Below are positions 1 to 51,598 of a DNA stretch of 51,598 bases, one piece after another. The position numbers were made by a program, and so were the translations under genes. Position 1 is the first letter of the stretch. Each line of letters opens with the position of its first letter. Where the stretch lies: positions 1 through 51,598 of the IMG/VR virus record IMGVR_UViG_3300018466_000001, one strand, 5' to 3'. Origin of the DNA: a virus. The notes under the pieces are model-generated. The model searched no databases. It was not told the DNA's origin and was given only the letters and a program-made list of their open reading frames with translations.

Positions 1-123
1 CCCTAATCCTGTACGCTTGCATCTTCTCGCCGGCCAAGGGGTCCCCAATCCACTCCAACACCATAGCGTTCAAAGCGATGTCGCACTTGGCGCAGATGCC
101 CCGGTAGACGTTGCCGTCCGCGC
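1..123. repeat. Terminal direct repeat copy 1 (identical to 51476-51598); circular assembly overlap or terminal redundancy
   Basis: Bases 1-123 recur exactly at 51476-51598. A minus-strand ORF reads in frame across the join. Confidence 0.95.
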
Positions 124-421: not shown

Positions 422-2137
422 CTACTGCTCCACAAAGGGTGCACCGTCGCTGCGTGCGAAGGCTTCCGCGTCTCCCTTTGGGATGCCTGCCGCGATCCAC
501 GCCGCCGTCCTATCCGCCTGCTGGTCAATGAGCGCCTGAACGGATGCCGCCTTCTCGCCCGGCGTGCGCTCTGCCGCGATTCGGTCACGCTCGCCCTGCA
601 CGTCCTGAATGCCCACGCGCGCGGTGCCTTCGCTCTTGGAAATCAACTCCGCCGCCGAGAGAGCAATGGCCGAAGCCTGCGCTTCGCTGGACACGGGACC
701 TGCGTTGGGGTGGGACTTGGCAACAACGGTCCAATCGTTGAGGAACGCCGGTGCGGAGCCGCCGGAGCGCCACTCCGCCGCAGCCATAACCCACGCGATC
801 AGCTTGGCAAGCGCGGTATCGATGGCCTCTCCCACGGATTCTATATCCGATAGGAACATCGCCCGCGCCTGTTCGTACGCCACGCCCGACGCCTCCGCCG
901 TGCTGCCCGAGAGTCCGTTCATGCGGTGTCCCTGGTGGCACGCGTCACGTAGAGCGAGGCGCTCGCAGTCCAGCGCCTCGATCAGGGTGGAAGGCGGCGA
1001 CGGTTCGTGGTAGTGCACGAACGGCGTCGTGATGCCCACCTTCTCGCCTGTTTCGTCGGTAGACGCGGTGTACTCGAACCCTCGGATCTTGCGGATGACG
1101 TAGTTGCCCAGCGTGGGAACAACGGGCTTGAAATACTCCGTCTCGCCGTTGCTGTTAACTCGGGTGCGGGGCGCTTCTATGCCGGCCGGAGCCGTCTTCT
1201 GCCACACCCCGTCGTCTTCCGTGTTTCCCTCAGTACGAGCTGCCAGGCCGTGCGCACCGCACAGGTTCATCAGCAGCGTGTTGATCGTGTCCACTGCGCC
1301 CTGTAGCCGCAGCACAGGCTCAGTCAGCAGCGTCCCGATCTTGACGTGCACGATGGGCAGCAGTCCGCCCGTGGGGATGATGGTCGGCTTTTCCTCCGCC
1401 TGCCCTGCGACGAGCATGCGCCAGACCGTCACCTCTTCGCCGCTCTTGCGCTCCTCTGAGTACCAGACTTCCGCGCACTCCCTGTCCTGCGTGTCGGTGA
1501 AGCGGAACCATCCCACCTCGCGGAGCGTGTCGGGGTCCGTGTAGATGCCGCATCGGTCCGGCGGAAGGGCTACTACCTTTATCCTGCGGAGCGCCGTGCG
1601 CCTGTTGGCCGCAAGGTTCGAGTTCGACCAGAACGCGCGCAGGCACGCGCGGCCCTGCAGCCACGAAGAGGCCATGGCGACTGCGCCGCGCACGCCCGTT
1701 GGGTCGCTCACGTCCATCCCGCCCCACAGGTCGTTATCGTCCCACCAGCGGGATGCGTCTCGCTTCAGTTGCTTGGCGGCGGCGATCTGTGTAGCGGACG
1801 GCGTGTCGTCCGGCCCTTCCGGCTCGGCGGGTTGGAAGTCCAGATCCGCTTCGTTCCCGCACGCACCGTTGACGCGCTCCTTGACGCACCCCAGCGCTTC
1901 GGGGATGGGCGCCAGCATGTTGCGGATGCGAGTCTGGTTATCCGCCGAGATGGAGCCGTCCGCCTCGCGCCCCGGCCCCTGCCAAGGCCGCCCCTCCTGC
2001 ACGTGATCCCCGGCGAGGTACGCGGGACCCTCTCCCACGCCGAGAACGGCCGCACGCCGGGTGGTCAGCCCGGCGGCGGCCTTGACGTGGTCCAGTGTCC
2101 ACTCTGCGGGGTCCTGCGGGATCGTGTCGAGGCTCAC
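422..2137 (-). CDS. Portal protein (by size and position)
   Basis: 571-aa ORF in the terminase-to-head module. Its GTG start overlaps the preceding stop (GTGA). Confidence 0.6.
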   Translation of the reverse strand: MSLDTIPQDPAEWTLDHVKAAAGLTTRRAAVLGVGEGPAYLAGDHVQEGRPWQGPGREADGSISADNQTRIRNMLAPIPEALGCVKERVNGACGNEADLDFQPAEPEGPDDTPSATQIAAAKQLKRDASRWWDDNDLWGGMDVSDPTGVRGAVAMASSWLQGRACLRAFWSNSNLAANRRTALRRIKVVALPPDRCGIYTDPDTLREVGWFRFTDTQDRECAEVWYSEERKSGEEVTVWRMLVAGQAEEKPTIIPTGGLLPIVHVKIGTLLTEPVLRLQGAVDTINTLLMNLCGAHGLAARTEGNTEDDGVWQKTAPAGIEAPRTRVNSNGETEYFKPVVPTLGNYVIRKIRGFEYTASTDETGEKVGITTPFVHYHEPSPPSTLIEALDCERLALRDACHQGHRMNGLSGSTAEASGVAYEQARAMFLSDIESVGEAIDTALAKLIAWVMAAAEWRSGGSAPAFLNDWTVVAKSHPNAGPVSSEAQASAIALSAAELISKSEGTARVGIQDVQGERDRIAAERTPGEKAASVQALIDQQADRTAAWIAAGIPKGDAEAFARSDGAPFVEQ

Positions 2138-2316
2138 TGCGCGGGGCCTTTGCCGAAGAGCGAATCGAAGAAGGCCACCAACAGCCTGTGCGTCTCTTGG
2201 GGGGTCGCCCCCGCCTCCACGGCGCCGCGATATACGGCCAGCGCCATTCCCGTGCTGGCGGATAGCGCCGCTAGCGCTTGGTCCATCTGGTGAGTCGAAA
2301 GCGGATCGGTTTTCAT
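2134..2316 (-). CDS. Small protein (60 aa), translationally coupled to peptide A2 and to the portal gene
   Basis: ATG at 2316 shares one base with the A2 stop (TGATG). Its own stop overlaps the portal GTG. Sequence begins MKTDPLSTHQMDQALAAL... Confidence 0.5.
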   Translation of the reverse strand: MKTDPLSTHQMDQALAALSASTGMALAVYRGAVEAGATPQETHRLLVAFFDSLFGKGPAQ

Positions 2317-2636
2317 CAGCAGGCGCCGCCGCACGACAGGTAGCACGCGTTGGTCATGCACTGAGTGGCGGCACAGGTATCCCAGTAGTAGGAGTTGTTG
2401 TAGCATGGGTTGTTGTTCGCCCAGCAGGTCCAGTTGCACGTGGCTTCCCCCGTGGGCGCGTTGGGGTCGTTAGGTTCCTGCGGGAAGCAGAGGCCGCGCG
2501 GGTCGCAGGACATGTTGACCGATCCGCACTGCGGGTCGTCAGTGTGCCCGCGTACCGTGCCGACCGTGGACGGCGGCCGGGCGGTGGCGAACGACTCCAC
2601 CTCGATTGCGTCAAGGTCCAGCTTCAGCTTGCGCAT
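2316..2636 (-). CDS. Cys-rich peptide A2 (106 aa, 11 Cys) with leader-like N-terminus MRKLKLDLDAIEVESF; RiPP-precursor-like
   Basis: Internal ATG at 2636 of ORF 2316-2921, preceded by AAAGGG. Paralogous to 2684-3001 in both the leader and the Cys pattern. Confidence 0.6.
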   Translation of the reverse strand: MRKLKLDLDAIEVESFATARPPSTVGTVRGHTDDPQCGSVNMSCDPRGLCFPQEPNDPNAPTGEATCNWTCWANNNPCYNNSYYWDTCAATQCMTNACYLSCGGAC

Positions 2637-2683
2637 CTGTACACCCTTTCGAATTATACGCCACCAACACCATGGGAACAAGG

Positions 2684-3001
2684 CTAGCAATCGTACGCGC
2701 ACGTCCCGTAGTAGCACGTGAACGAGCACGTGTCCATCCCGTTGGCGCAGGTCGCGTGTCCGGCGCAGGTCTCGCACGTCATGTTGCATGTGGCCGCGCA
2801 GGTCTCCCCACCCTCGGTCCAGCAGGTGCCGCCGCTCGGATCTTCCGTTCCGGTCTCGGGAAGGCATAGACCTCCGCCCGTTCCCGGCTGGCACGTGCTG
2901 TTCAGCAGGGTATGCCGGCATTGGCCCGCGTGTACGCCGCCGTCTCCGGTCGAGAACGAGTCCACCGCCAGATCGTCCAGTGCCAGCGTCAACTTACGCA
3001 T
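2684..3001 (-). CDS. Cys-rich peptide A1 (105 aa, 13 Cys) with leader-like N-terminus MRKLTLALDDLAVDSF; RiPP-precursor-like
   Basis: ATG at 3001 with GAGG 8 nt upstream. The C-terminal half is dominated by TC/SC dipeptides (CAATCNMTCETCAGHATC...). Confidence 0.6.
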   Translation of the reverse strand: MRKLTLALDDLAVDSFSTGDGGVHAGQCRHTLLNSTCQPGTGGGLCLPETGTEDPSGGTCWTEGGETCAATCNMTCETCAGHATCANGMDTCSFTCYYGTCAYDC

Positions 3002-3087
3002 CGTCGCCTCGCGTTTGTCGAAGGTTGCCCCGAAAGGAACGACGGAAGATACGATTGGCGCGATTTAGTCACAAGTACGCCGTGTGT

Positions 3088-3285
3088 TTATACCTCTTCT
3101 TCTGCCACCCGCCTCGCGTCAAAGGAGTAGAGCAGGGAGCCATCTTCCTGTGGAACCGGCGGAATGGTCGCTTGTCCCCTCCACACGTGCCCGTGCGCTG
3201 TCACCTCGAACCACGGCATGTCGGATTCCGGCATCTGGTGTTCGGGGACGGCGATGTCCACGTGTATGTACTGCGTCTCGCTCAT
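3088..3285 (-). CDS. Hypothetical protein (65 aa)
   Basis: ATG at 3285 overlaps the terminase stop (ATGA). Sequence begins MSETQYIHVDIAVPEHQ... Confidence 0.5.
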   Translation of the reverse strand: MSETQYIHVDIAVPEHQMPESDMPWFEVTAHGHVWRGQATIPPVPQEDGSLLYSFDARRVAEEEV

Positions 3286-4808
3286 TTGTAGGACACGTTT
3301 CCAGAGGTGGGAAGAGAACGGCGCGGCTTCGGTTCGTGGGTCAGCAGCAACTCGGTAATCAGCCACACCAGGGCGTCCAGACGGTTGGGCGACGGGTCTC
3401 CGGGCTCCCATGTGCAGAGTTCCTTCTCCAGCGCCACGAAGGTGCCCACGTGGTGCACGCGTCCGTCTTCGTAGAGCTTCTGGACGGGCTCGGCTCGGGT
3501 GCGCTTGCCCCGGCTGGCGTGGATCAGCTTCACCTTGGGCGCGTCAGGCACGGTGCCGATGGTGATCGCCACCATTTCGCCGCCGTTGTTGCTCTCGGCT
3601 ACCATGCGGTCCGCGTCCCAGCGCTTGAACGCCGCTACGGCTTCCTTGGCCCATGTCGCCGGCCCTCCTGCCGTGCTCGCGTCCTCAAGCACAAAGGCGT
3701 GCAGAATGCCCTTGATTCGCGCTACACCGCCCACGGCAATGCCGGCCTCGTCTCCACCCTCGGTAGCGTTCGGATCGATCCCCACGACGATGCGGAACAG
3801 GTCTGGCACGTTGACGGGCTTCTCGCGGAACGGATCAAGATCGCGCTCCCGGTTCCACAGTCCATCCTCTGACTCGTCTGTCTCGTGCTGCGCTTCGCGA
3901 AGGAACGCGGCCCTTCCCCACGTGTTCATTTGCGCTTCGCACGTTTCTATGCTCTGACCCGCCCACGTAGGCACGGCGTCGGTTATCTTGTACTGAGTGG
4001 GGACCGTGCCTGGAATGGCGTGATACCAATCTTTCGACAGGGGCGTTAGCGCGGGCTCGCAGAACACCTCTCTGCGCAACAGGAAATCCGCCGTGTTGTT
4101 GAGCAGCTTCGCGGCGATGCTGCCAGAGTGAATGACGTTCTGTACGAAAAGAACCGCTGCGTCGGTAGACTCTGCCGGGAGCACGCTCTGGGTTATGGTG
4201 GATATCTTCTTGTTGACCGTATCCTCCGTATCGTCCCTGTCGTCTACGTCGTCAAACACGAAAAGGTCTGGGCGATCACCCTCGATTTTTAGGCCGCGAG
4301 CCGCAGAGTCAAGCCCAAGAGCCAGCACGTTGAATCCGTTGTCGCACCGCAGCATGTCCACTCGCCAACCGAGGCTGCTTCCGTAGGGCCCGATCGCTCG
4401 CCCAATGCCCAGGTTCGTAAAGTGCGGAGCGATGTCCTGTAGGTGCTTGTTCGCCTGTGCCTGCGTTTTGGATATGTACAAGCAAAATTTGCGGGCCTGC
4501 CGCGCTCCCGTTCTCGTTGTCGCCAACTCAACAGTGGAGCTTTTGCCGCCTCCGCGAGGCCAGAGTTCCACCCGAGCATTTACGGGCCGCACACCACGAT
4601 TGAGCATCTCGAACCATTCCCACAAACGGACGTGCCTGTCCGCGAATGGGGATGATGTGGCGTGGGGGAAGTGCTTGGCAACCCACGTCCGCCAGTCTCC
4701 GGACGCACGCGGGCCGATCCGCTTGCCTTGCCCGGCGAAGTGGAACGGCCCTGTGCTTACCTGCGCCCAGTGCTTTAGGTTGGGCGGCGTGGTGTCCGGC
4801 CTGCTCAC
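3282..4808 (-). CDS. terL: Terminase large subunit
   Basis: 508 aa. Walker A-like LWPRGGGKSS and Walker B-like DLFVFDDVDD. The C-terminal half looks nuclease-like (VVGIDPN...). Sits upstream of the portal gene. Confidence 0.85.
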   Translation of the reverse strand: MSRPDTTPPNLKHWAQVSTGPFHFAGQGKRIGPRASGDWRTWVAKHFPHATSSPFADRHVRLWEWFEMLNRGVRPVNARVELWPRGGGKSSTVELATTRTGARQARKFCLYISKTQAQANKHLQDIAPHFTNLGIGRAIGPYGSSLGWRVDMLRCDNGFNVLALGLDSAARGLKIEGDRPDLFVFDDVDDRDDTEDTVNKKISTITQSVLPAESTDAAVLFVQNVIHSGSIAAKLLNNTADFLLRREVFCEPALTPLSKDWYHAIPGTVPTQYKITDAVPTWAGQSIETCEAQMNTWGRAAFLREAQHETDESEDGLWNRERDLDPFREKPVNVPDLFRIVVGIDPNATEGGDEAGIAVGGVARIKGILHAFVLEDASTAGGPATWAKEAVAAFKRWDADRMVAESNNGGEMVAITIGTVPDAPKVKLIHASRGKRTRAEPVQKLYEDGRVHHVGTFVALEKELCTWEPGDPSPNRLDALVWLITELLLTHEPKPRRSLPTSGNVSYK

Positions 4809-9135: not shown

Positions 9136-9588
9136 ATGGGCAAGATGAACACCACTACCGTCACCTCCTGCCCCCTCTGCGGCGGCAACCTCTCCCCGGC
9201 CGATGCCGGAACCCGTTCGCAGTGCGACAACTGCGGGGCCAAGGTCAACGTCGTGACCGTCGAGCCCGGCGACCCCGATCCCATGACGGCCGAAGCCGTG
9301 ATCCGCTCCGCCCTGACGGCGCTCCTGCGCGTCCCGCTCACCTTTGACGCGAGCGAACGCTACCGGTACGAAGCGGACGCCACCATCCAAGAAGTCCGGA
9401 TCGGCTTGGGCAAGTGGTTGGATGGCCACGCAGATGCGGAGGAGGAGATGCGCTTTGACGCCTTCGCCCGCGACGTGAAGCGCCGCGCCCCCTTCGGCCG
9501 TGCGTGGACACCTTCCAACCTGCGTCCCCTGTTCGATGCAGGGCGTACGGTAGATGAGGTGCTGACCATGAAGCCCGAGGGTCGCTGA
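9136..9588 (+). CDS. Zinc-ribbon protein (150 aa) ending in MKPEGR
   Basis: ATG at 9136 with GGGAG upstream. Has CPLCGG...CDNCG. Its C-terminus is encoded by the conserved junction repeat. Confidence 0.55.
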   Translation: MGKMNTTTVTSCPLCGGNLSPADAGTRSQCDNCGAKVNVVTVEPGDPDPMTAEAVIRSALTALLRVPLTFDASERYRYEADATIQEVRIGLGKWLDGHADAEEEMRFDAFARDVKRRAPFGRAWTPSNLRPLFDAGRTVDEVLTMKPEGR

Positions 9589-9836
9589 TGCCTTCCATTC
9601 ACGAGAACCCGTCCCGCTGGTACGAAGAAGAGGCTATCGCCAAAGGCATCACACGTGAGCAGGCGATTAAGGAGAACGATGTAGACTTCGCCTCTCTTCA
9701 AGCCTACGGACTGGCGCTAGCGGCTGGAGAGACGCTTAACGCCTACAGCCAGAACAAGGTGAACGAGTTGGTGGCGCGCATATCCCTGCGCAGATCGTGC
9801 CTACACCGACTAGCCATGAAGCCGGAGGGCAGATGA
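9588..9836 (+). CDS. Hypothetical protein (82 aa) ending in MKPEGR
   Basis: ATG overlaps the upstream TGA. Its 3' end carries junction repeat CCATGAAGCCGGAGGG. Confidence 0.55.
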   Translation: MPSIHENPSRWYEEEAIAKGITREQAIKENDVDFASLQAYGLALAAGETLNAYSQNKVNELVARISLRRSCLHRLAMKPEGR

Positions 9837-10042
9837 GCCGCGCGATCCTGTACCGGAACGGCGGTTGCTACGTAACGGCGGCGGCTGGTGTCGGGCACTA
9901 CGTCGTGTACAGGCCATGGGGCACCGCGTCTGCCGCATGTGGCACGTTCCACTTCCCGAACGACAGCGACTACGCATACCGGCGAGCAGTAGCGGAGTGC
10001 GACCGCCGCGCTGGACTGCCCATGAAGCCGGAAGGGAGGTGA
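9833..10042 (+). CDS. Hypothetical protein (69 aa) ending in MKPEGR
   Basis: ATG at 9833 (ATGA overlap) with GGAGGG 5 nt upstream, inside the junction repeat. Confidence 0.5.
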   Translation: MSRAILYRNGGCYVTAAAGVGHYVVYRPWGTASAACGTFHFPNDSDYAYRRAVAECDRRAGLPMKPEGR

Positions 10043-10045
10043 GCG

Positions 10046-10366
10046 GTGGGAACCGTGGCCGATGCAATCGACCTGCGTAGACGGGCTAACGCTGCACTCG
10101 TTGCTTCTGTTCGTGTGCAAACGGACCGGCTCAAGGAGGGATTGACCCACAGGAGCGTTTGCTACCCTGTGGTTTCTGCCCTCCTTATGGAAGCAAGTGG
10201 CATTCTGAAAAGGCACCAAAATGGCGCCCTCAGCGATGATGCCTTTTCGATGCTTCACCTTATGAGATTGGAAGAGGCGCTTCGCCGCACTTCGAATACC
10301 TCGGCTCCAGTCCGGCATTCCGATCTTTACAGCCAGGCTGCGTTCGACTGGGCAACGGAAAGATAG
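10046..10366 (+). CDS. Hypothetical protein (106 aa); last gene of the cassette
   Basis: GTG start 3 nt after the preceding stop, with GGGAGG upstream. Confidence 0.5.
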   Translation: MGTVADAIDLRRRANAALVASVRVQTDRLKEGLTHRSVCYPVVSALLMEASGILKRHQNGALSDDAFSMLHLMRLEEALRRTSNTSAPVRHSDLYSQAAFDWATER

Positions 10367-10406
10367 GGACAGCAGCGAGGCGTGCCCAGTGGTGCTCTTC
10401 TGCATT

Positions 10407-10928
10407 TCACCCATCCGCCTTCGGAGCGAAAAGCGCGGTCTGTGCGTCTGCGTCCTGCCGGGGAGCTAGCGGCTGCGGGAGGGCGTGCGGTAAGATCTGG
10501 AGGGCGATCAAGCCACCCTTTGTTGCCCCAACCTCTTCGAATCCCGCCCGCCTGTAGCACCTCCCGAAGTCGCGCTTGCGGCGAACCTTCGTCGGGTCAA
10601 CGAAAGTAATCATCCCCAACTCCGGAGGCTCCCACCGCCATAGCGTGCAAGCAAGAGCCTGTCTTATCAACTCGCTCGACAACAGGTCCTTGTTCTCGTT
10701 CCGAAACGCGCTGCACACCCATGCTCCTGCCCAATCGTGTTTGACGAATTCCGCGTAGGGATAGGACGTGACCCAAAAGGCGGTAGCTGGGCGGGTAACG
10801 AGCACGAGGCATCGACCCGGCGGCACGAAACCTACAGCGCCGATCTTCTGCCGGTTGTAGTGGCGGTCCGCCAGTTCTCTCGCCTTCGGATCGGTTCTCC
10901 ACGACAGCCACCACTCCATGCTACCCAT
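10407..10928 (-). CDS. Hypothetical protein (about 173 aa; start 10928 or 10919)
   Basis: MGSMEWWLSWRTDPKARELADRHYNRQK...FRNENKDLLSSELIRQA... The long N-terminal extension of ORF 10407-11201 looks non-coding. Confidence 0.5.
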   Translation of the reverse strand: MGSMEWWLSWRTDPKARELADRHYNRQKIGAVGFVPPGRCLVLVTRPATAFWVTSYPYAEFVKHDWAGAWVCSAFRNENKDLLSSELIRQALACTLWRWEPPELGMITFVDPTKVRRKRDFGRCYRRAGFEEVGATKGGLIALQILPHALPQPLAPRQDADAQTALFAPKADG

Positions 10929-11065
10929 CCGCCGTCGTGGGTGCCAGCGTGGCGGGCGCTCTTGCCGGACCGGATGCGCTCCCACGGACCGGCCCCGCGC
11001 TCTCTGAGATGCGCATACAGTCCTGTAGCGTTGCCCTGCGTGGCCCACCAAACAAGGGCGCTGAT

Positions 11066-11569
11066 TCACGCACGGGGCGCCTGCCAAAGCTTGAGTGTCG
11101 TCCGCCAAACCCAATCTCCACCCGCCTCCTCGGGCACCACATGGACCACCTGAGCACGCATCCGAGAATACTTCTTCGGCATCGTTGCGGCGCTGCGCCA
11201 TGCCACGTCGGTTGAGTCAGAGGCGCGGTAGTAGACCACGTCATCCTCTACAGGCTCGCGGAACCACGCCTCACGCACGTACAGGATGACCGGCTCGGCT
11301 CCATCCACCGCGAAGAATGACCACGGGTTGTACAGGCGCTCGGTTACTAGCCCGTCTCGTTCGCTTACAGTATCCCCGCCTGCGTAACGCGCTACTGGCA
11401 CGTGCAATCCAGGCGACACGCCCCACAACTTGTCTGCGCGAGCTCGCGACAGGTCCGGCCCCTGCGCCATCAGGCTCTTGGGGCATGCGACAGTCACCGA
11501 TACCTCGCACGTCCCTTCCGCCAGAAGGGCGCGCACCTGTTCCACGGATAGCATGATGCTGCTAGGCAT
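11066..11569 (-). CDS. Hypothetical protein (167 aa)
   Basis: ATG at 11569 overlaps the upstream stop region. Confidence 0.5.
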   Translation of the reverse strand: MPSSIMLSVEQVRALLAEGTCEVSVTVACPKSLMAQGPDLSRARADKLWGVSPGLHVPVARYAGGDTVSERDGLVTERLYNPWSFFAVDGAEPVILYVREAWFREPVEDDVVYYRASDSTDVAWRSAATMPKKYSRMRAQVVHVVPEEAGGDWVWRTTLKLWQAPRA

Positions 11570-11786
11570 CGTCGTCCCTCCCTTCCGTGATCTCTCGTTC
11601 GCACTTCACGCATACCCAGCCTAGAACTGGATCGTGGCTGGCCTTTGCTTGATAGCAGTATTCGCATGGCACCTCTTCGGCACCACCCCCGAAGCCATGC
11701 CGCGCTCTTGCCGCAGCCGTGGCGGCGTTGCGGCGCATGCGCTCTGAGAACGCGTCCCACTTCGCCTGCTTCAGATCTCTGATCAT
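11562..11786 (-). CDS. Small zinc-ribbon protein (74 aa)
   Basis: Internal ATG at 11786. Has CEYC...CVKC. Confidence 0.45.
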   Translation of the reverse strand: MIRDLKQAKWDAFSERMRRNAATAAARARHGFGGGAEEVPCEYCYQAKASHDPVLGWVCVKCEREITEGRDDDA

Positions 11787-11829
11787 GGTTCCTCGTGAGA
11801 GTGAAGGCCCATCCAACCAGAGCCGTGCA

Positions 11830-12033
11830 TCACGGGCTCCTCCTCGCAGCAGAGCGGGCACCATCAGCGTCCGTTCTCGAAACGCCAACCTCTATCATTT
11901 CCACCACCGCCACGCCTTCCTGCCAGCAGCCCACGGGAGCGGTGTAGACGGGTGCGGCGCAGCCGCAGCACTCCACCTCGAACGGAGCAGGGCCGGTGTC
12001 TGCGAACGTGGCAACGATGTCCTCTTGTTTCAT
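11830..12033 (-). CDS. Hypothetical protein (67 aa)
   Basis: ATG at 12033. Sequence begins MKQEDIVATFADTGPAPFEVECCGC... Confidence 0.4.
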   Translation of the reverse strand: MKQEDIVATFADTGPAPFEVECCGCAAPVYTAPVGCWQEGVAVVEMIEVGVSRTDADGARSAARRSP

Positions 12034-12039
12034 GCTCCC

Positions 12040-12375
12040 TCACTTGTTTGGGTTCCGTCCGTCTTCTGCCCATCCCCAAATCAGAACCATGTCCATCCCT
12101 ACAGCGTACCGCTCCGCTTCTTCTGGCGTGGCTGTGCCGGACTTTACCAGCCTCTCCAGCCTATCCACCTCGGCACTCGCACGCTTGGCCTGAGACGCGT
12201 TCCTAAGCCCCTTGAACGCCTCCTCTGGCTCCCTGATGGTGCGTGGGAACTCATTGTGCCATGGTCTCCCCTGGCAGACGGTGCAGAGCGGCGCAGGGTG
12301 GTGCGGGAAGATCTCCGCCAGCGCCGTGTTGTCCACCGTGCGGCAGGCTTGGTTTGAGCAAACGAAGAGCGTCAT
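12040..12375 (-). CDS. Zinc-ribbon protein (111 aa)
   Basis: ATG at 12375 overlaps the DnaC-like stop (ATGA). Has CSNQAC...CTVC. Confidence 0.5.
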   Translation of the reverse strand: MTLFVCSNQACRTVDNTALAEIFPHHPAPLCTVCQGRPWHNEFPRTIREPEEAFKGLRNASQAKRASAEVDRLERLVKSGTATPEEAERYAVGMDMVLIWGWAEDGRNPNK

Positions 12376-13037
12376 TTCCACCTCTCCCATGCGTCAACGC
12401 CCTTGGCAGGGGCGCGCCGGTCGGGCCCGGTCAGCAGCGCACCCTTCAAGTTGGCACGCATGCGGCTAACGAGCTTGGCCCACTCGGGGCTACGGGTGCG
12501 AAGTTTCTCGGTCGAGTAGTTCGACGTGAAGAAGGTCGGGCGCCCAATCCGCGTATCAATCAACTTGAACAGGTGCGCCGTCGCGTCGTCTCCGCTGGGC
12601 TCAGTGCCCACGTCGTCCAGCACCAGCACGTCCGCCCATGCATACCGCCCAACCACCGCATCCGCCGTCACATCCGAATTGCGGTTGTACGTGGCCCGCA
12701 CCGCCGAGATCAGGTTCGCGCTGGACACCCACATAAGGGAGGGCCATTCGTCCTTGCCCTGCTCAAACGAGTAGATCCTGCCGGCACCTCTCCGGGCTAG
12801 CTCCATCATACTTGCGGCGGCTAGGAACGACTTTCCGCACCCTGGGGCAATCTCCTCACCGGTGCGCTCGCTGGTCAGCATGATCCCCGGCCCTCCCAAC
12901 GGTCGCCCTTCGTTGAACCACCGCTCTACCGCGTCCGTCCACTGAGAGGCGAGAGCCAACGCCTTCCGGTCCGGGTCCGGGTCGAACGTCGCGAACGTGG
13001 CGCGATGCAGGTGCGAAGGGATCTGCGTGCGTACCAT
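12372..13037 (-). CDS. DnaC/IstB-like AAA+ helicase loader
   Basis: Walker A IAPGCGKSFLA and Walker B VLVLDDVG, plus PTFFTSN. Start chosen at ATG 13037 to avoid a 113-nt overlap. Confidence 0.75.
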   Translation of the reverse strand: MVRTQIPSHLHRATFATFDPDPDRKALALASQWTDAVERWFNEGRPLGGPGIMLTSERTGEEIAPGCGKSFLAAASMMELARRGAGRIYSFEQGKDEWPSLMWVSSANLISAVRATYNRNSDVTADAVVGRYAWADVLVLDDVGTEPSGDDATAHLFKLIDTRIGRPTFFTSNYSTEKLRTRSPEWAKLVSRMRANLKGALLTGPDRRAPAKGVDAWERWK

Positions 13038-13080
13038 GAGAAAGAGCCTCTCGCGCCGCGCCGCTTCTTCGCGAGCAAAG

Positions 13081-13776
13081 TCAGCACTCGTCAACGTCTG
13101 CGAAGATCGGATCGTCGCGGGCAGACTCGCCTTCCCTGCGATATCGCCAATCGCGTGCGTCTTGCCGCGCCGCACCGTTGCGTCCGTTTCCATTTGTCTG
13201 CGCGTTCCGGTTAGCGTGAAACTCGGCAGCTTGCTCCAGCCACTTGTCGAACGAACGATCCGGATCTGTGTGCACCTTGTCGAAGTCGTGCGCCTTGTAC
13301 TTTCTCACCTGACGGTCAAGGTCCAGTTTAAGTTCTGCCGCCCTCGCTTTGTGGCGGTCTTTCGGTTCCCACCCCGCCGGTACCTGCTTCCACCCGTCCC
13401 CCTCTGTTTTTGTCTGTCTCTTACTCTCTCTCTGTCTCTCTCTCTTAGGGGCAGGTTGCTGGCTATTTGCTAGCGCCTCGATAGCGTCCTGCTCCGCAAC
13501 TATAAATCCTATGGTAATAAGGGGTTGCAGGTCCACGTCGTTTGTGCAACCGAGCCTCTGAGCGATCCATGCAGGGTCAGCCGGCACCTTGTTTTGCATC
13601 CTGCTCGCAAGGAGCATGATGCCAACCGCCAGCCACTTGCTAGCATCCTGCAAGCGAGTAAACTCGTAACTGTCCAACAGGTCGTTGTACAGTTTTATCC
13701 ACGGCGGGTTGCGGTCCTTGTAGTGCTGAAGGCGGTCGAAGTCCGCTACTGAAATGTACGGTGGCACGGCGGTCAC
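13081..13776 (-). CDS. Replication organiser/initiator-like protein (start 13776 or 13767)
   Basis: Sits immediately upstream of the helicase loader. Conserved-looking N-terminus FDRLQHYKDRNPPWIKLYNDLL, then a basic Arg/Lys/Glu-rich middle. Confidence 0.5.
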   Translation of the reverse strand: MTAVPPYISVADFDRLQHYKDRNPPWIKLYNDLLDSYEFTRLQDASKWLAVGIMLLASRMQNKVPADPAWIAQRLGCTNDVDLQPLITIGFIVAEQDAIEALANSQQPAPKRERQRESKRQTKTEGDGWKQVPAGWEPKDRHKARAAELKLDLDRQVRKYKAHDFDKVHTDPDRSFDKWLEQAAEFHANRNAQTNGNGRNGAARQDARDWRYRREGESARDDPIFADVDEC

Positions 13777-25304: not shown

Positions 25305-25400
25305 GGCGGGCGGTCTACCGGTACGGTGCCGGGAGCCGAAAGGCCACGGAGCGCAGCGCTGCGTTGATCACGCCTAACCCCGTAGGCCGTCCGCCACGTT

Positions 25401-25472
25401 CGCCCTGTAGCACAACGGTTGTGCGCCCGCCTTTGGAGCGGGAGGTTCTCGGTTCGAATCCGAGCAGGGCAG
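25401..25472 (+). tRNA. tRNA-Gln (anticodon UUG)
   Basis: Hand-folded cloverleaf. D stem GCAC/GTGC, anticodon stem CCCGC/GCGGG, loop CTTTGGA, T arm CTCGG-TTCGAAT-CCGAG. Has a C1/A72 mismatch and G73. No CCA encoded. Confidence 0.85.
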
Positions 25473-25831
25473 TTGGGTGTTGGCGGTAAATAGACCGCCT
25501 GTCGTTTGGAGCTACTGGGAACCGCGCGTTCTGTTCACGGCCCGGACGCTGGTAGCCTGCGGAGGAAGTCCGGATAACACGGCGAAGCGGATGCGCCAGC
25601 CGCCGGGAATCTCCAGAGTCGATACCAGACGGCACCGCCAGCACCCTTTGTCCGCCCGCTCTGTCGCGACAGTGCCTAGCATGCGGGGCTAGGCGAAACC
25701 TGATGGAGTGGGCCACGGTGAAATCGGCTGGAGTGCGGCGTAGGAGCCTTGCGCAAGCGCCGTCGCCAGCCTCCCAAAAGGGCGCCGTGGCTCACAGGTT
25801 TCCACCTCACCAAAACACTCAAGAAATCCCA

Positions 25832-26752
25832 ATGAGCGACGGCCGGCTACACTCCTACCCGAAGGTCTGGAACCTGGGGCATCCTAACCTTGCCGAACTG
25901 TTTTCCGGAGAGGTGGTGGTGCAGGAGAAGGTGGATGGTTCGCAGTTCTCCTTCGGCGTGGTTGGCGGGGTCCTCCTGCTCCGGTCGAAGGGTGCCACGC
26001 TCTACCCGGAGACGAACGACAAACTGTTTCGGGGTGCGATTAACACCGCCGTGCGGCTCTTCAACGAAGGATTGCTGCCGGAGGGTCTGACGTACCGAGG
26101 CGAAGCGTTCATGAGCCACAAGCACAACGCGCTCGCATACGAACGGTGCCCAGCGGGGAACTTCGTGCTCTTCGACGTGGACGATGGCCTAGAGAGCCGA
26201 TTCGACGCAGCGCGCCTGCGTGACGAGGCCGCGCGGCTGGGGCTGGAGGTGGTGCCTACGTACTTCGTGGGGGAGGTCGAGTCTCTGGAGGGCCTGCAAC
26301 CCTTCCTCGCGACTCCTAGCGTGCTGGGCGGGCGCACAGAGGGCATGGTGGTGAAGAACTACGCCCGACGGGGTCGCGATGGCAAGATGCTGATGGGGAA
26401 GTTGGTGGCGGACGATTTCCGCGAGATCAACGGCAAGGAGTGGAAGAAGAGCAACCCCACCCGCGCCGACGTGATTGAAACGTTGATCGAACGTTTCCGC
26501 ACCGAAGCGCGGTGGGCCAAGGCGGTGCAGCACCTTCGCGAGCGTGGGGAGATCACAGGCGATCTGCGCGACATCGGCAAGTTGATCCGCGAGGCTCCGC
26601 AGGACGTACGCGAGGAGTGCGAAGACGAGATCAAGCAGGCGCTCTTTGACGCGTTCTGGAAGGACATCTCCCGTGGCGTGACTCGCGGGCTTCCGGAATG
26701 GTACAAGGCGCAGGTTGCGGGTGAGCAGGTGTTCGCGGGCCCGGAGCCTTAA
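25832..26752 (+). CDS. ATP-dependent RNA ligase-like nucleotidyltransferase
   Basis: Motif I QEKVDGSQ (KxDG), YRGEAF, FVLFDV, motif IV/V-like TEGMVVKN and GKLV. Start placed at ATG 25832 (MSDGRLHSYPKVWNLG) and is uncertain. Confidence 0.75.
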   Translation: MSDGRLHSYPKVWNLGHPNLAELFSGEVVVQEKVDGSQFSFGVVGGVLLLRSKGATLYPETNDKLFRGAINTAVRLFNEGLLPEGLTYRGEAFMSHKHNALAYERCPAGNFVLFDVDDGLESRFDAARLRDEAARLGLEVVPTYFVGEVESLEGLQPFLATPSVLGGRTEGMVVKNYARRGRDGKMLMGKLVADDFREINGKEWKKSNPTRADVIETLIERFRTEARWAKAVQHLRERGEITGDLRDIGKLIREAPQDVREECEDEIKQALFDAFWKDISRGVTRGLPEWYKAQVAGEQVFAGPEP

Positions 26753-49335: not shown

Positions 49336-49950
49336 TCACCTGAATTCCCATTCGCACTTGCATCGCGTACGGCAATCGCGTGCCCCAATCTCGGGTACTT
49401 CCCTGCTCTTGATCGGGTGCCAACCCGCCGCCGTGGCCGCCACGCACCCCGCGCACGAATCCCCACGGTGCCGCTTGTTGCGCTTCTCGGTAGATCCGCG
49501 CAAGTCCTGCTCGGCTATCTCTATGCGGTGGTAGAGAGGGCGTCCGGCTTGGGTGTATAGGTGCGCGCGGGCGTTCAGCCTGCCGTCCAGCAGTTGTCGG
49601 CCCGCCTGCACGTCCTGGGCGAAACCGCGTAGGTACTGGTACTGGCCTCGTACGTACTGCCCCACCCGCCCGTAATCCGCATCGCTCATCTGCGCCCAAC
49701 CACCCTTAGCAGCCGCAGCGCTGTAGAGGGAGACGTTCTTGATCTCGCGGCGCATGGCGACTTCCCAGGAGATCAGGTCTATGTTGCCGGTCCGCAGGGC
49801 TGTTGCGAGGCCGTCAATACGTTTCGTGGCGGTGTCTAGAGCTACGTCCAGCCACGCGCGGACCTGTGCAGGCTGAACAAATCGGCCGCCGGGTCCGCGA
49901 TACCTGCCTGCCACGCGGTCGTAAGTGTACTCAGGACGTTTGCGCGGCAT
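49336..49950 (-). CDS. Head morphogenesis/minor capsid protein (MuF/SPP1 gp7-like)
   Basis: 204 aa. C-terminal Cys cluster ...CAGC...DCRTRCKCEW resembles the CRC-type ending of gp7-family proteins. Position is between the portal and scaffold genes. Confidence 0.4.
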   Translation of the reverse strand: MPRKRPEYTYDRVAGRYRGPGGRFVQPAQVRAWLDVALDTATKRIDGLATALRTGNIDLISWEVAMRREIKNVSLYSAAAAKGGWAQMSDADYGRVGQYVRGQYQYLRGFAQDVQAGRQLLDGRLNARAHLYTQAGRPLYHRIEIAEQDLRGSTEKRNKRHRGDSCAGCVAATAAGWHPIKSREVPEIGARDCRTRCKCEWEFR

Positions 49951-50166: not shown

Positions 50167-50634
50167 TTAGCGTCCATGCGACAACCCGCTTCGCTTCTGG
50201 AACCGGCGGTTTCGTCCCCGCCCGCGAGTCTGCCCAGTTGCGTGGTATGCAGGCGCGAACAGGGTCATCGTGGCGCTTGCCTTCTCGGCGCTCTCTCCTG
50301 CACGTGCAAGAGCGTCGGCGCTCGGGATAATGCTGTGCGCGTACGGGTTCGCACCCTGCGCCGCCTCCTCGGGACTCTTGCCATGGACAAGCAGGTCTCC
50401 CACCCGTTCCAGTGCCTTCTGCCGGGCAGGAGTGCCGTCGAACAGGGGGCATCGAGACACGGCGGTCTCGTATTCCTCCTGAGTTCGACAGACCGCGCGC
50501 ACGCGGTGCTGGGCCGCCTGCATGTCCAGCATCGCGTGTAGGGCAAGGTTCCACTGGAGCAGGCGCGCGCGTAGCGTACCAATGCCGACCCCAACACCAT
50601 CCGCGACCACGCGAGAAAGTTCTTTAGCGTCCAT
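50167..50634 (-). CDS. Hypothetical protein (155 aa)
   Basis: ATG at 50634 with GGAGGTG upstream. Palindrome copy 13 lies 20 nt upstream. Confidence 0.5.
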   Translation of the reverse strand: MDAKELSRVVADGVGVGIGTLRARLLQWNLALHAMLDMQAAQHRVRAVCRTQEEYETAVSRCPLFDGTPARQKALERVGDLLVHGKSPEEAAQGANPYAHSIIPSADALARAGESAEKASATMTLFAPAYHATGQTRGRGRNRRFQKRSGLSHGR

Positions 50635-50869
50635 CCGCCACCTCCGCCCTGTTGGAAATTGTTTCCACGTCGATACCAGCGGCTTCGATCTTGGACACCG
50701 GCATAACGAAGCGCCTCGTGACCCAGCCTTGCGCGATGGGGATCAGCACCGTCAGGAAGGTGCCCCAAAGCGTTGCCTTCTCGCCGCTCAGGATGCCGTA
50801 GGAGACAAGCAGGGCCATGCCGGCACCGATCACGCCCACGGCCATGGCTGGCTCTCGTGAGACCTTCAT
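50624..50869 (-). CDS. Two-TM membrane protein (81 aa), holin-like
   Basis: ATG at 50869 (ATGA). Hydrophobic segments AMAVGVIGAGMALLVSYGIL and LWGTFLTVLIPIAQGWV. Confidence 0.4.
   Translation of the reverse strand: MKVSREPAMAVGVIGAGMALLVSYGILSGEKATLWGTFLTVLIPIAQGWVTRRFVMPVSKIEAAGIDVETISNRAEVADGR
50654..50666. repeat. Palindrome copy 13, GGAAATTGTTTCC
   Basis: In the 3' end of CDS 50624-50869 (VETISN), 20 nt upstream of ATG 50634. Confidence 0.9.
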
Positions 50870-51126
50870 AGCGGCGCTTCCTCGCGCGGTGCGTGAATTA
50901 TGATCGTGCGTCCGTCGTGCAGAAGTATCCACCCCGGCGCCTTGCCGTGCCCGCAAAAACTCTTCGCGGTCAGGATGCCGTGCGCGTTGAGGGCGTTAAC
51001 CAGCGGGGCTATGCAGGCATCCACCCCCTTGACGTCCGGATGCGTCTTGCCGTTGTGCGCTAGATTAGCGGGCACAATCACCGGCAGCAGCACATCCGTT
51101 CCCCACTCGCACATTATGGCCTCCAC
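50866..51126 (-). CDS. Cys/His-containing protein (86 aa; alternative ATG at 51114)
   Basis: MCEWGTD...HPDVKGVDACIAPLV...SFCGHGKAPGW. Confidence 0.45.
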   Translation of the reverse strand: MEAIMCEWGTDVLLPVIVPANLAHNGKTHPDVKGVDACIAPLVNALNAHGILTAKSFCGHGKAPGWILLHDGRTIIIHAPREEAPL

Positions 51127-51475: not shown

Positions 51476-51598
51476 CCCTAATCCTGTACGCTTGCATCTT
51501 CTCGCCGGCCAAGGGGTCCCCAATCCACTCCAACACCATAGCGTTCAAAGCGATGTCGCACTTGGCGCAGATGCCCCGGTAGACGTTGCCGTCCGCGC
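51476..51598. repeat. Terminal direct repeat copy 2 (identical to 1-123)
   Basis: Exact 123-nt identity with the window start. Confidence 0.95.

Follow-up and report, generated by a model that had tools for sequence, protein, structure and literature searches.

Phage genomes can encode ribosomal peptide natural products, and sublancin on the Bacillus phage SPbeta is an example within a prophage. Elements of the sublancin/SPbeta type carry a whole pathway, comprising the precursor, a modifying enzyme, export and immunity, and a study entitled 'Phages carry interbacterial weapons encoded by biosynthetic gene clusters' reportedly describes complete clusters for bacteriocins or other RiPPs (peptides synthesised ribosomally and then modified post-translationally) on prophages. 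Here, we analysed positions 1 to 51,598 of the IMG/VR virus record IMGVR_UViG_3300018466_000001 (this whole stretch of 51,598 nucleotides is hereafter called the window), in which an earlier note, made from the letters of the DNA, had pointed out two adjacent small genes, A1 and A2, as possible RiPP precursors. These genes encode peptides that resemble LanA, the precursor of class I lanthipeptides. The window differs from the SPbeta type in that the phage holds the precursor only, in its late packaging module, so that maturation would have to rely on the host.

We consider it moderately probable that A1 and A2 are precursors of the LanA type encoded by the phage, that they depend on a host split LanB dehydratase and a host LanC cyclase acting in trans, and that they thereby give the phage lanthipeptides of its own during infection. 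For a broader version of this proposal we see even chances: that a clade of soil phages infecting Longimicrobiaceae, together with at least one unrelated, probably phage lineage, carries orphan precursors as a swappable cassette matured by host LanB/LanC.

Such an arrangement also recalls auxiliary metabolic genes, which are usually enzymes that boost host metabolism: in both cases a single host-derived phage gene would plug into a host pathway during infection, but here the phage would supply the substrate or template of a natural-product pathway and not an enzyme. Class I lanthipeptides have been met before at the phage-bacterium interface in the form of 'lanthiphages', which are complete host-side anti-phage class I clusters (LphB/C/D/E/F) described in Actinobacteria only; these act intracellularly on phage transcription, and some of them lie on prophages or plasmids (bioRxiv 10.1101/2024.06.26.600839). 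In contrast, the cassette described here is precursor-only, is carried by a lytic-type phage genome and belongs with a different phylum.

The likeness to the pinensins of Chitinophaga pinensis concerns both leader and enzymes, in that the pinensin leader model NF038180 was the sole curated match of the present family, and in that the bacterial clusters of this family (locus L023) also encode a split LanB, as used in pinensin biosynthesis (PMC7268733). Pinensins come from Bacteroidota, whereas the present family belongs to Longimicrobiaceae (Gemmatimonadota); furthermore, its cores are much longer and hypervariable, its clusters contain two LanC-like proteins of about 700 amino acids (aa) and 13 precursors, and its phage copies are free of enzymes. 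The prochlorosins of marine cyanobacteria, with their ProcA precursors and the promiscuous ProcM, offer a functional analogy only: they too combine one conserved leader with many hypervariable cores encoded by mostly distant genes, and the location of prochlorosin genes far from the LanM gene has been noted (PMC7268733). They differ in using a class II LanM and Nif11-type leaders, as opposed to a class I split LanB plus LanC and an unrelated leader here, and we found no published record of prochlorosin precursors on phages. Nor did we find any report of enzyme-less lanthipeptide or other RiPP precursors conserved on phages, in a literature search whose coverage was incomplete, so that an earlier description is possible. 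The class of chemistry and the in-trans logic are already known, then, and what we regard as new is a virus with the precursor only, on a swappable cassette in its packaging module. As for membership in the LanA class, A1 and A2 have the two-part structure and the homologous leader, while the enzyme in the same genome is absent from the phage.

The A1 and A2 genes in a complete phage genome

A1 (2684..3001, minus strand) is an open reading frame (ORF) of 105 aa that starts with MRKLTLALDDLAVDSF, and A2 (2316..2636, minus strand) is a second LanA-like ORF, of 106 aa, that starts with MRKLKLDLDAIEVESF; both could be read in the sequence exactly where the earlier note had placed them. The A1 leader covers approximately residues 1-26 (nt 2924-3001) and ends with GGVHAG; in the core that follows, which is about 79 aa long, there are 13 Cys and 18 Ser/Thr. 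In A2, the leader covers approximately residues 1-31 (nt 2544-2636) and ends with GTVRGH, and the core of about 75 aa contains 11 Cys and 11 Ser/Thr. Cys is absent from both leaders and occurs together with Ser/Thr in both cores, and our counts of Cys in the C-terminal cores agree with those of the earlier note. The GDGG of A1, which had been read as part of a Gly/Pro linker, had to be reassigned, as it belongs to the conserved motif that ends the leader (GGVHAG). BLASTP aligned A1 with A2 at an E value of 2e-10, and the leader DNA of the pair was also detected as a direct repeat (family D3), a likeness beyond chance that marks the two genes as paralogs, as had been claimed.

The first 123 nt of the window are identical to its last 123 nt (an exact terminal direct repeat at 1..123, without strand, matching 51476-51598 with 100% identity; repeat search, family D1). 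These identical ends show that the window represents a whole phage genome (51,475 bp, circular or terminally redundant), which we label as lytic-type. A Pfam scan of all 86 plausible ORFs of this genome detected no dehydratase, cyclase, LanM/KC/L, YcaO or radical SAM protein, and no leader peptidase or exporter either. In addition, when every six-frame ORF of the window was searched by phmmer with genuine LanB-N, LanB-C, LanC, ABC and HlyD proteins, no match was obtained. Since the window is complete and both types of scan were empty, the absence of a maturation enzyme, which the earlier note had already remarked, holds for the whole phage genome, and dependence on host enzymes is consequently the natural reading of the two genes.

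The leader family and its enzyme-linked clusters in bacteria

When A1 or A2 was used as the sole query in a search of 5.8 billion proteins, each recovered only itself and one relative. One relative, P0002, has a leader nearly identical to that of A2 and is encoded by a bacterial contig where five small leader-bearing ORFs stand in tandem. A profile made from nine sequences then recovered 252 proteins. When 1.84 billion cluster representatives were searched exhaustively with HMMER, 6,835 of them matched at E <= 0.001 and 717 at E <= 1e-10, these representatives being counted at 50% clustering. Among the best 150 members listed, lengths range from 66 to 186 aa and, with few exceptions, the alignment begins at the first residues. 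The family leader reads M-[RK]-K-L-x-L-D-L-D-x-L-x-V-[ED]-[ST]-F-x-T-(6-9 residues)-G-T-V-[RH]-[GA] and is followed by a hypervariable core; its terminal motif can be written G-[GT]-V-[HRK]-[AG], which corresponds to GGVHAG in A1 and to GTVRGH in A2. Altogether, this looks like a very large, prochlorosin-like family of class I precursors that is apparently undescribed, as no report of this Gemmatimonadota family was found in the literature searched, the coverage of which was incomplete. Two members, P0071 (172 aa) and P0121 (186 aa), contain two leader-plus-core units within a single ORF and are either fused precursors or read-through gene calls.

In a scan of reference genomes (one genome per species), 17/17 matches came from Longimicrobium, Longimicrobiaceae or Gemmatimonadetes metagenome-assembled genomes (MAGs), although the patterns used were narrow and the real taxonomic range of the family may be wider. 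Lanthipeptide clusters have been predicted in this group before, with three of them in Longimicrobium terrae (PMC7291104). The pinensin lanthipeptide leader model NF038180 was matched by 33 of 118 family members at E <= 0.01, with a best value of 2.2e-6, which suggests that the family is a sister group of the pinensin-type class I precursors and not a member of that group by the curated threshold. No match to Nif11 or NHLP models was detected in A1, A2 or any of the 118 family members. The leaders also contain [KT]-L-x-L-D (KLDLD in A2, TLALD in A1), which is similar, at the level of sequence only, to F-x-L-D; an F-x-L-D (FNLD-type) leader box for LanB has been described (PMC7268733).

A link between this leader family and lanthipeptide enzymes was found at the bacterial locus L023, where the family member P0009 is encoded within an array of 13 leader-bearing ORFs (9717-13628) located immediately downstream of LanB and LanC genes. 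The LanB is split into an N-terminal part (2-2632; Pfam Lant_dehydr_N, 2e-44) and a C-terminal part encoded by a separate ORF (2616-3812; Pfam Lant_dehydr_C, 2e-42), and two further genes encode LanC-like proteins, each about 700 aa long, with matches to Pfam LANC_like (4e-52 and 5e-49). The array is followed by genes for an ABC transporter and an HlyD-type protein. This layout, down to the number of 13 precursors, is repeated at a second locus, L079; since L079 is only 76-85% identical to L023 in nucleotide sequence, it comes from a different organism. At a third locus, L006, which belongs to a Longimicrobiaceae MAG, a precursor is followed by the same ABC/HlyD pair, which places this type of cluster in Longimicrobiaceae. 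Thus, the homologous peptides beside LanB/LanC genes that the earlier note had said to look for do exist. When the L023 LanC was used as a query in metagenome contigs, no match was obtained, a single-protein query reaching close relatives only.

The LanC-like proteins of L023 and L079 each have an unannotated C-terminal extension of about 270 aa.

The 18 kb of L023 that were retrieved (LanB(N), LanB(C), two LanC, ABC and HlyD) contain no YcaO and no [4+2] enzyme. The thiopeptide/YcaO and radical SAM readings were therefore dropped, as no such enzyme was found either in the window or in the retrieved linked clusters. Of the leader likeness suggested in the earlier note, the class I lanthipeptide part has thus stood, with homology to LanB/LanC-linked leaders and the NF038180 matches, while the thiopeptide part has not.

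As an independent test, a leader model was built from the 13 L023 precursors alone and compared with 1,336 six-frame ORFs from the window and two phage fragments. A2 (46.0 bits, E 2e-13), the leader peptide of the related phage locus L027 (44.3 bits, E 7e-13) and A1 (32.6 bits, E 3e-9) came out on top, followed by two peptides of the phage locus L003 (26.6 bits, E 2.5e-7, and 15.0 bits, E 0.001), the best other ORF reaching 7.4 bits (E 0.24). These scores argue strongly for homology, and we hold it as very probable that the A1 and A2 leaders share ancestry with leaders of LanB/LanC-linked precursors.

Most bacterial copies lie far from such enzymes. Among the bacterial loci of at least 10 kb, 27 of 28 contain no LanB or LanC gene within 10 kb, the exception being L079, so that about 96% of the arrays are orphans. 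The precursor arrays hold 1-13 genes. An all-against-all BLAST of 148 neighbouring proteins and a Pfam scan of 107 revealed no conserved neighbour, as no family occurred in more than two loci; because the neighbouring genes are ordinary and do not recur between loci, we consider these arrays as true orphans. The bacterial precursor system appears to act in trans, at a distance from its enzymes, and if one enzyme set serves scattered precursors in this way, then a phage-borne precursor could be processed as well.

The composition of the cores is consistent with this idea. In the bacterial members, Cys makes up 14.6% of the cores versus 0.2% of the leaders, Thr and Ser account for 13.5% and 6.6% of the cores, and Lys is nearly absent. 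Ser plus Thr are at least as numerous as Cys in 99% of the members, and the residue before a Cys is most often Thr or Ser. The cores of A1 and A2 display the same Cys/Thr/Ser pattern, and the cores of the leader family as a whole look like lanthipeptide substrates.

Two groups of bacterial cores are of unusual design. The five-precursor array at L004 (10001-11189) encodes Thr/Ile/Val-rich cores (for example SDPISIAITITIATTTITTITDATER) with no Cys or with one or two C-terminal Cys, and this subgroup could only be dehydrated and not extensively cyclised. In four other precursors (L005 9110-9397, L007 1662-1946, L010 1929-2213 and L011 5563-5841), the core consists of three tandem repeats of about 20 aa with the unit GG-x-T-x-C-G-G-x-Q-T-C-G-x-G-C-Q, and such a precursor may yield three similar modules.

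Conservation in related phages and the weighing of explanations

Related phage loci carry the same kind of cassette. At L003, TerL (the large terminase subunit) and small ORFs precede an A1 ortholog with 63% identity, after which come another leader peptide, whose 58-aa core is different, and a portal-like gene. At L027/L032 (IMG/VR UViG_3300037511_000194), TerL and small ORFs are followed by a single leader peptide of 107 aa and then by a portal-like gene. A third A1 ortholog was found at L030 (901-1227), between homologs of window regions 50630-50872 and 49471-49950; this copy occupies another slot of the head module, which indicates that the cassette moves within that module. The A1 orthologs in the other phages (P0004 and P0005) are 60-63% identical to A1, to be compared with 61-72% for TerL (L027 and L003) and with 57% (L003) and 42% (L027) for the portal-like protein. 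The core in the A2 slot has been swapped between phages. No Lan enzyme was found on these other phage loci.

Between A1 and its L003 ortholog, synonymous sites are saturated (proportion of synonymous differences, pS, 0.73), whereas the proportion of nonsynonymous differences (pN) is 0.21. The resulting ratio of nonsynonymous to synonymous rates (dN/dS) is approximately 0.09 for A1 overall and 0.125 for its core; TerL and the portal-like gene have values of 0.17 and 0.27. A1 is therefore a real gene under strong purifying selection (dN/dS about 0.1, with estimates of 0.09-0.13), as constrained as TerL. The earlier note had chosen coding conservation in related phages beforehand as a test that could overturn its reading; the genes are kept in three phages and the reading survived. 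In the three A1 orthologs, 12 of the 13 Cys are invariant, most of them along with the preceding Thr or Ser. Considering this low dN/dS and these invariant Cys, both the leader and the core of A1 are functional, which argues against passenger DNA and against a decoy made of the leader only.

Phage-borne copies are rare: out of 2.9 million contigs in IMG/VR, two leader scans found a single one that carries such a copy, and 79 metagenome loci included none. Scans of viral collections with the portal-like protein of the window and with A1 gave no match. Three leader-bearing peptides of 83, 110 and 66 aa were nevertheless found in a different, probably viral context with 54% GC (L028 2269-3380 and L029 738-1849), which also encodes a Sak4-like ATPase, an HNH endonuclease (HNH_3) and an N6_N4 DNA methyltransferase, so precursor-only cassettes may have entered phages more than once.

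If A1 and A2 are indeed LanA-type precursors, the following scenario can be proposed. The class I lanthipeptide system would be native to Longimicrobiaceae, and A1 and A2 would combine a leader of host type with a core that is specific to the phage and abounds in Cys, Thr and Ser. They would be transcribed and translated alongside the late packaging genes; such co-expression is likely from the gene arrangement, since a consensus scan found no promoter-like or terminator-like site between TerL, the cassette and the portal-like gene, and since stop and start codons overlap in this region. The split LanB and the LanC cyclase or cyclases of the infected cell, which would already act on scattered orphan precursors, would recognise the leader, the Ser and Thr residues of the core would be dehydrated and then cross-linked to Cys, and the products would leave at lysis or through a host exporter. 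The phage would in this way add products to the lanthipeptide repertoire of its host without bringing any enzyme. The benefit to the phage would most likely be a peptide antagonistic to competing bacteria or competing phages.

Other explanations can be confronted with the same data. If the cassette were recently captured host DNA without function for the phage, the near identity between the A2 leader and that of the bacterial P0002 would be easily explained, and phages often have small accessory genes in between their structural genes. Such a passenger would not, however, be expected to persist in conserved synteny across phages this divergent (just 42-57% identity of the portal-like proteins) or to be under purifying selection as strong as that on A1, and A1-type cores were met only in phage contexts; this explanation is largely refuted and very improbable. 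Selection on the core also bears on the idea that A1 and A2 are decoys, in other words that a late excess of leader peptides saturates host LanB/LanC as a competitive inhibitor and blocks host lanthipeptides that are possibly anti-phage, the product itself having no role. Across phages no other part is as conserved as the leader, which matches enzyme-linked leaders, the core in the A2 slot is exchanged between phages, the phage has no enzyme, immunity gene or exporter, and intracellular anti-phage class I lanthipeptides are known in Actinobacteria (bioRxiv 10.1101/2024.06.26.600839), all of which would suit a decoy. But a pure decoy needs neither the low dN/dS of the A1 core nor its Cys and flanking Thr/Ser that are invariant in three phages, the anti-phage action that it would require of Longimicrobiaceae lanthipeptides is hypothetical, and the clusters that were found carry exporters, which points to extracellular products. 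We thus regard the decoy as quite unlikely.

It is also unlikely, in our view, that the peptides are simply unmodified Cys-rich products stabilised by disulfides or metals (virion-associated or decoration proteins, toxins or chelators), with a leader that serves for export or is a leftover. This less likely reading draws on the position of the genes inside the head/packaging module, translationally coupled to the presumed portal gene, on phage cores of a length and Cys density that are unusual beside those of the bacterial members, on the lack of enzymes in the phage and on the tight binding of Zn(II) by mature pinensins (PMC13532221), which brings metal binding into this chemical neighbourhood. 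Yet every phage copy has retained the leader, with scores as good as those of enzyme-linked leaders, while a leftover would have decayed at the synonymous saturation observed. Moreover, the L030 ortholog sits in another slot and the L028/L029 peptides lie among replication-type genes, which fits a mobile accessory gene better, and Pfam and NCBIfam scans revealed no likeness to known structural families.

Several observations weigh against the maturation of A1 and A2 by host LanB/LanC. Among RiPP-leader models, a search of which the earlier note had named as a check, only pinensin NF038180 was returned, weakly for A2 (16.8 bits, E 0.0046, below the curated 24-bit cutoff) and not at all for A1, whose leader is shortened. 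Dehydration, ring formation and leader cleavage are predictions from sequence for all members, bacterial and viral alike. The enzyme-linked clusters found are two (L023 and L079), from related organisms, and the in-trans architecture was seen across separate loci, not in one genome holding both orphan arrays and enzymes. The phage cores, with 76-83 aa and 11-14 Cys, exceed the bacterial median of 54.5 aa and 8 Cys, and no bacterial orthologs of phage cores were found. As to the host, Longimicrobiaceae were inferred solely from the distribution of the leader family, with no match to a CRISPR spacer, prophage or tRNA, and the GC content of the phage genome is 63% as against 67-73% at the bacterial loci. 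Finally, late co-expression may not be the whole story: on the coding strand, the A1-A2 spacer contains a TATAAT (2653-2658, minus strand), one of three in the 51.6-kb genome, 16 nt before the A2 ATG, with a TTGTTC (2676-2681) located 17 nt upstream. This -35 element matches the consensus at 3/6 positions, so the consensus scan did not call the site, which may be an internal promoter expressing A2 and the downstream genes separately, although it is suggestive only.

Should host enzymes mature the phage peptides, a template of 300 bp would be sufficient to reprogram the natural-product output of a cell, a cheap route to antagonistic or signalling molecules. A virus that supplies just the template of a RiPP natural product would be without precedent, and it would mean that RiPP chemistry is diversified and spread by viruses while no enzyme is moved, core diversity travelling between genomes. 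Genome mining based on clusters would miss such precursor-only cassettes because no enzyme lies nearby. The leader could then also be used to recognise, from sequence, which phages have the poorly cultured Longimicrobiaceae as hosts. Apart from the phage, the family implies a highly substrate-tolerant split LanB/LanC pair, possibly useful in peptide engineering, and it behaves as a class I counterpart of the prochlorosins, with thousands of hypervariable precursors in Gemmatimonadota.

Neighbouring genes and other features of the window

A GAGG Shine-Dalgarno sequence (3007..3010, minus strand) lies 5 nt before the ATG of A1, and the 47-nt spacer between A1 and A2 (2637..2683, minus strand) contains an AAGGG ribosome-binding site (2644-2648) 7 nt before the ATG of A2. 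Downstream of A2, an ORF of 60 aa (2134..2316, minus strand) is coupled to both of its neighbours by overlapping codons: as the earlier note had described, the A2 stop shares TGATG with the ATG of this ORF, and the stop of this ORF shares GTGA with the GTG start of a 571-aa gene. The 60-aa ORF has no notable Pfam, NCBIfam or PHROG match and no homolog in any fetched locus, so it appears unique to this phage among the loci compared.

The 571-aa gene (422..2137, minus strand) is the presumed portal gene. Its product gave no match in Pfam, PHROG, PDB profile or GenBank phage searches, including tblastn, and the portal label is given by position, size and conservation beside TerL; it may represent a very divergent portal family. 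Upstream of the cassette, TerL (3282..4808, minus strand) was recognised by Pfam Terminase_6C (2.8e-13). The claimed insertion between terminase and portal is thus supported by a database match on the terminase side, while the portal side is without one. Between TerL and A1, an ORF of 65 aa (3088..3285, minus strand; from the gene call on the source contig) overlaps the TerL stop, and it has no family match in library scans and no homolog in the other loci.

Apart from TerL, the recognised phage functions comprise a tape measure protein, a tail completion protein and an Amidase_2 endolysin, and the major head protein matches phrog_3990 (5e-29). The window further encodes a DnaC/IstB-like loader, an RNA ligase, three HTH_3 regulators and one tRNA-Gln. 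No related genome was found among GenBank phages, the sole match being a 172-nt stretch of terminase in an Arthrobacter phage. The tRNA-Gln(UUG) gene (25400-25473, plus strand) lies just upstream of the RNA ligase gene (25703-26752, plus strand; Pfam RNA_ligase, 1.3e-10), and together they could form a tRNA-repair or tRNA-replacement module against host anticodon nucleases. Lastly, a 41-nt repeat with the core CCATGAAGCCGGAGGG occurs in three copies at 9560-10054, with spacings of 248 and 206 nt (repeat search, family D2), and these copies may be regulatory sites, or else the starts of small paralogous ORFs, repeated from gene to gene.

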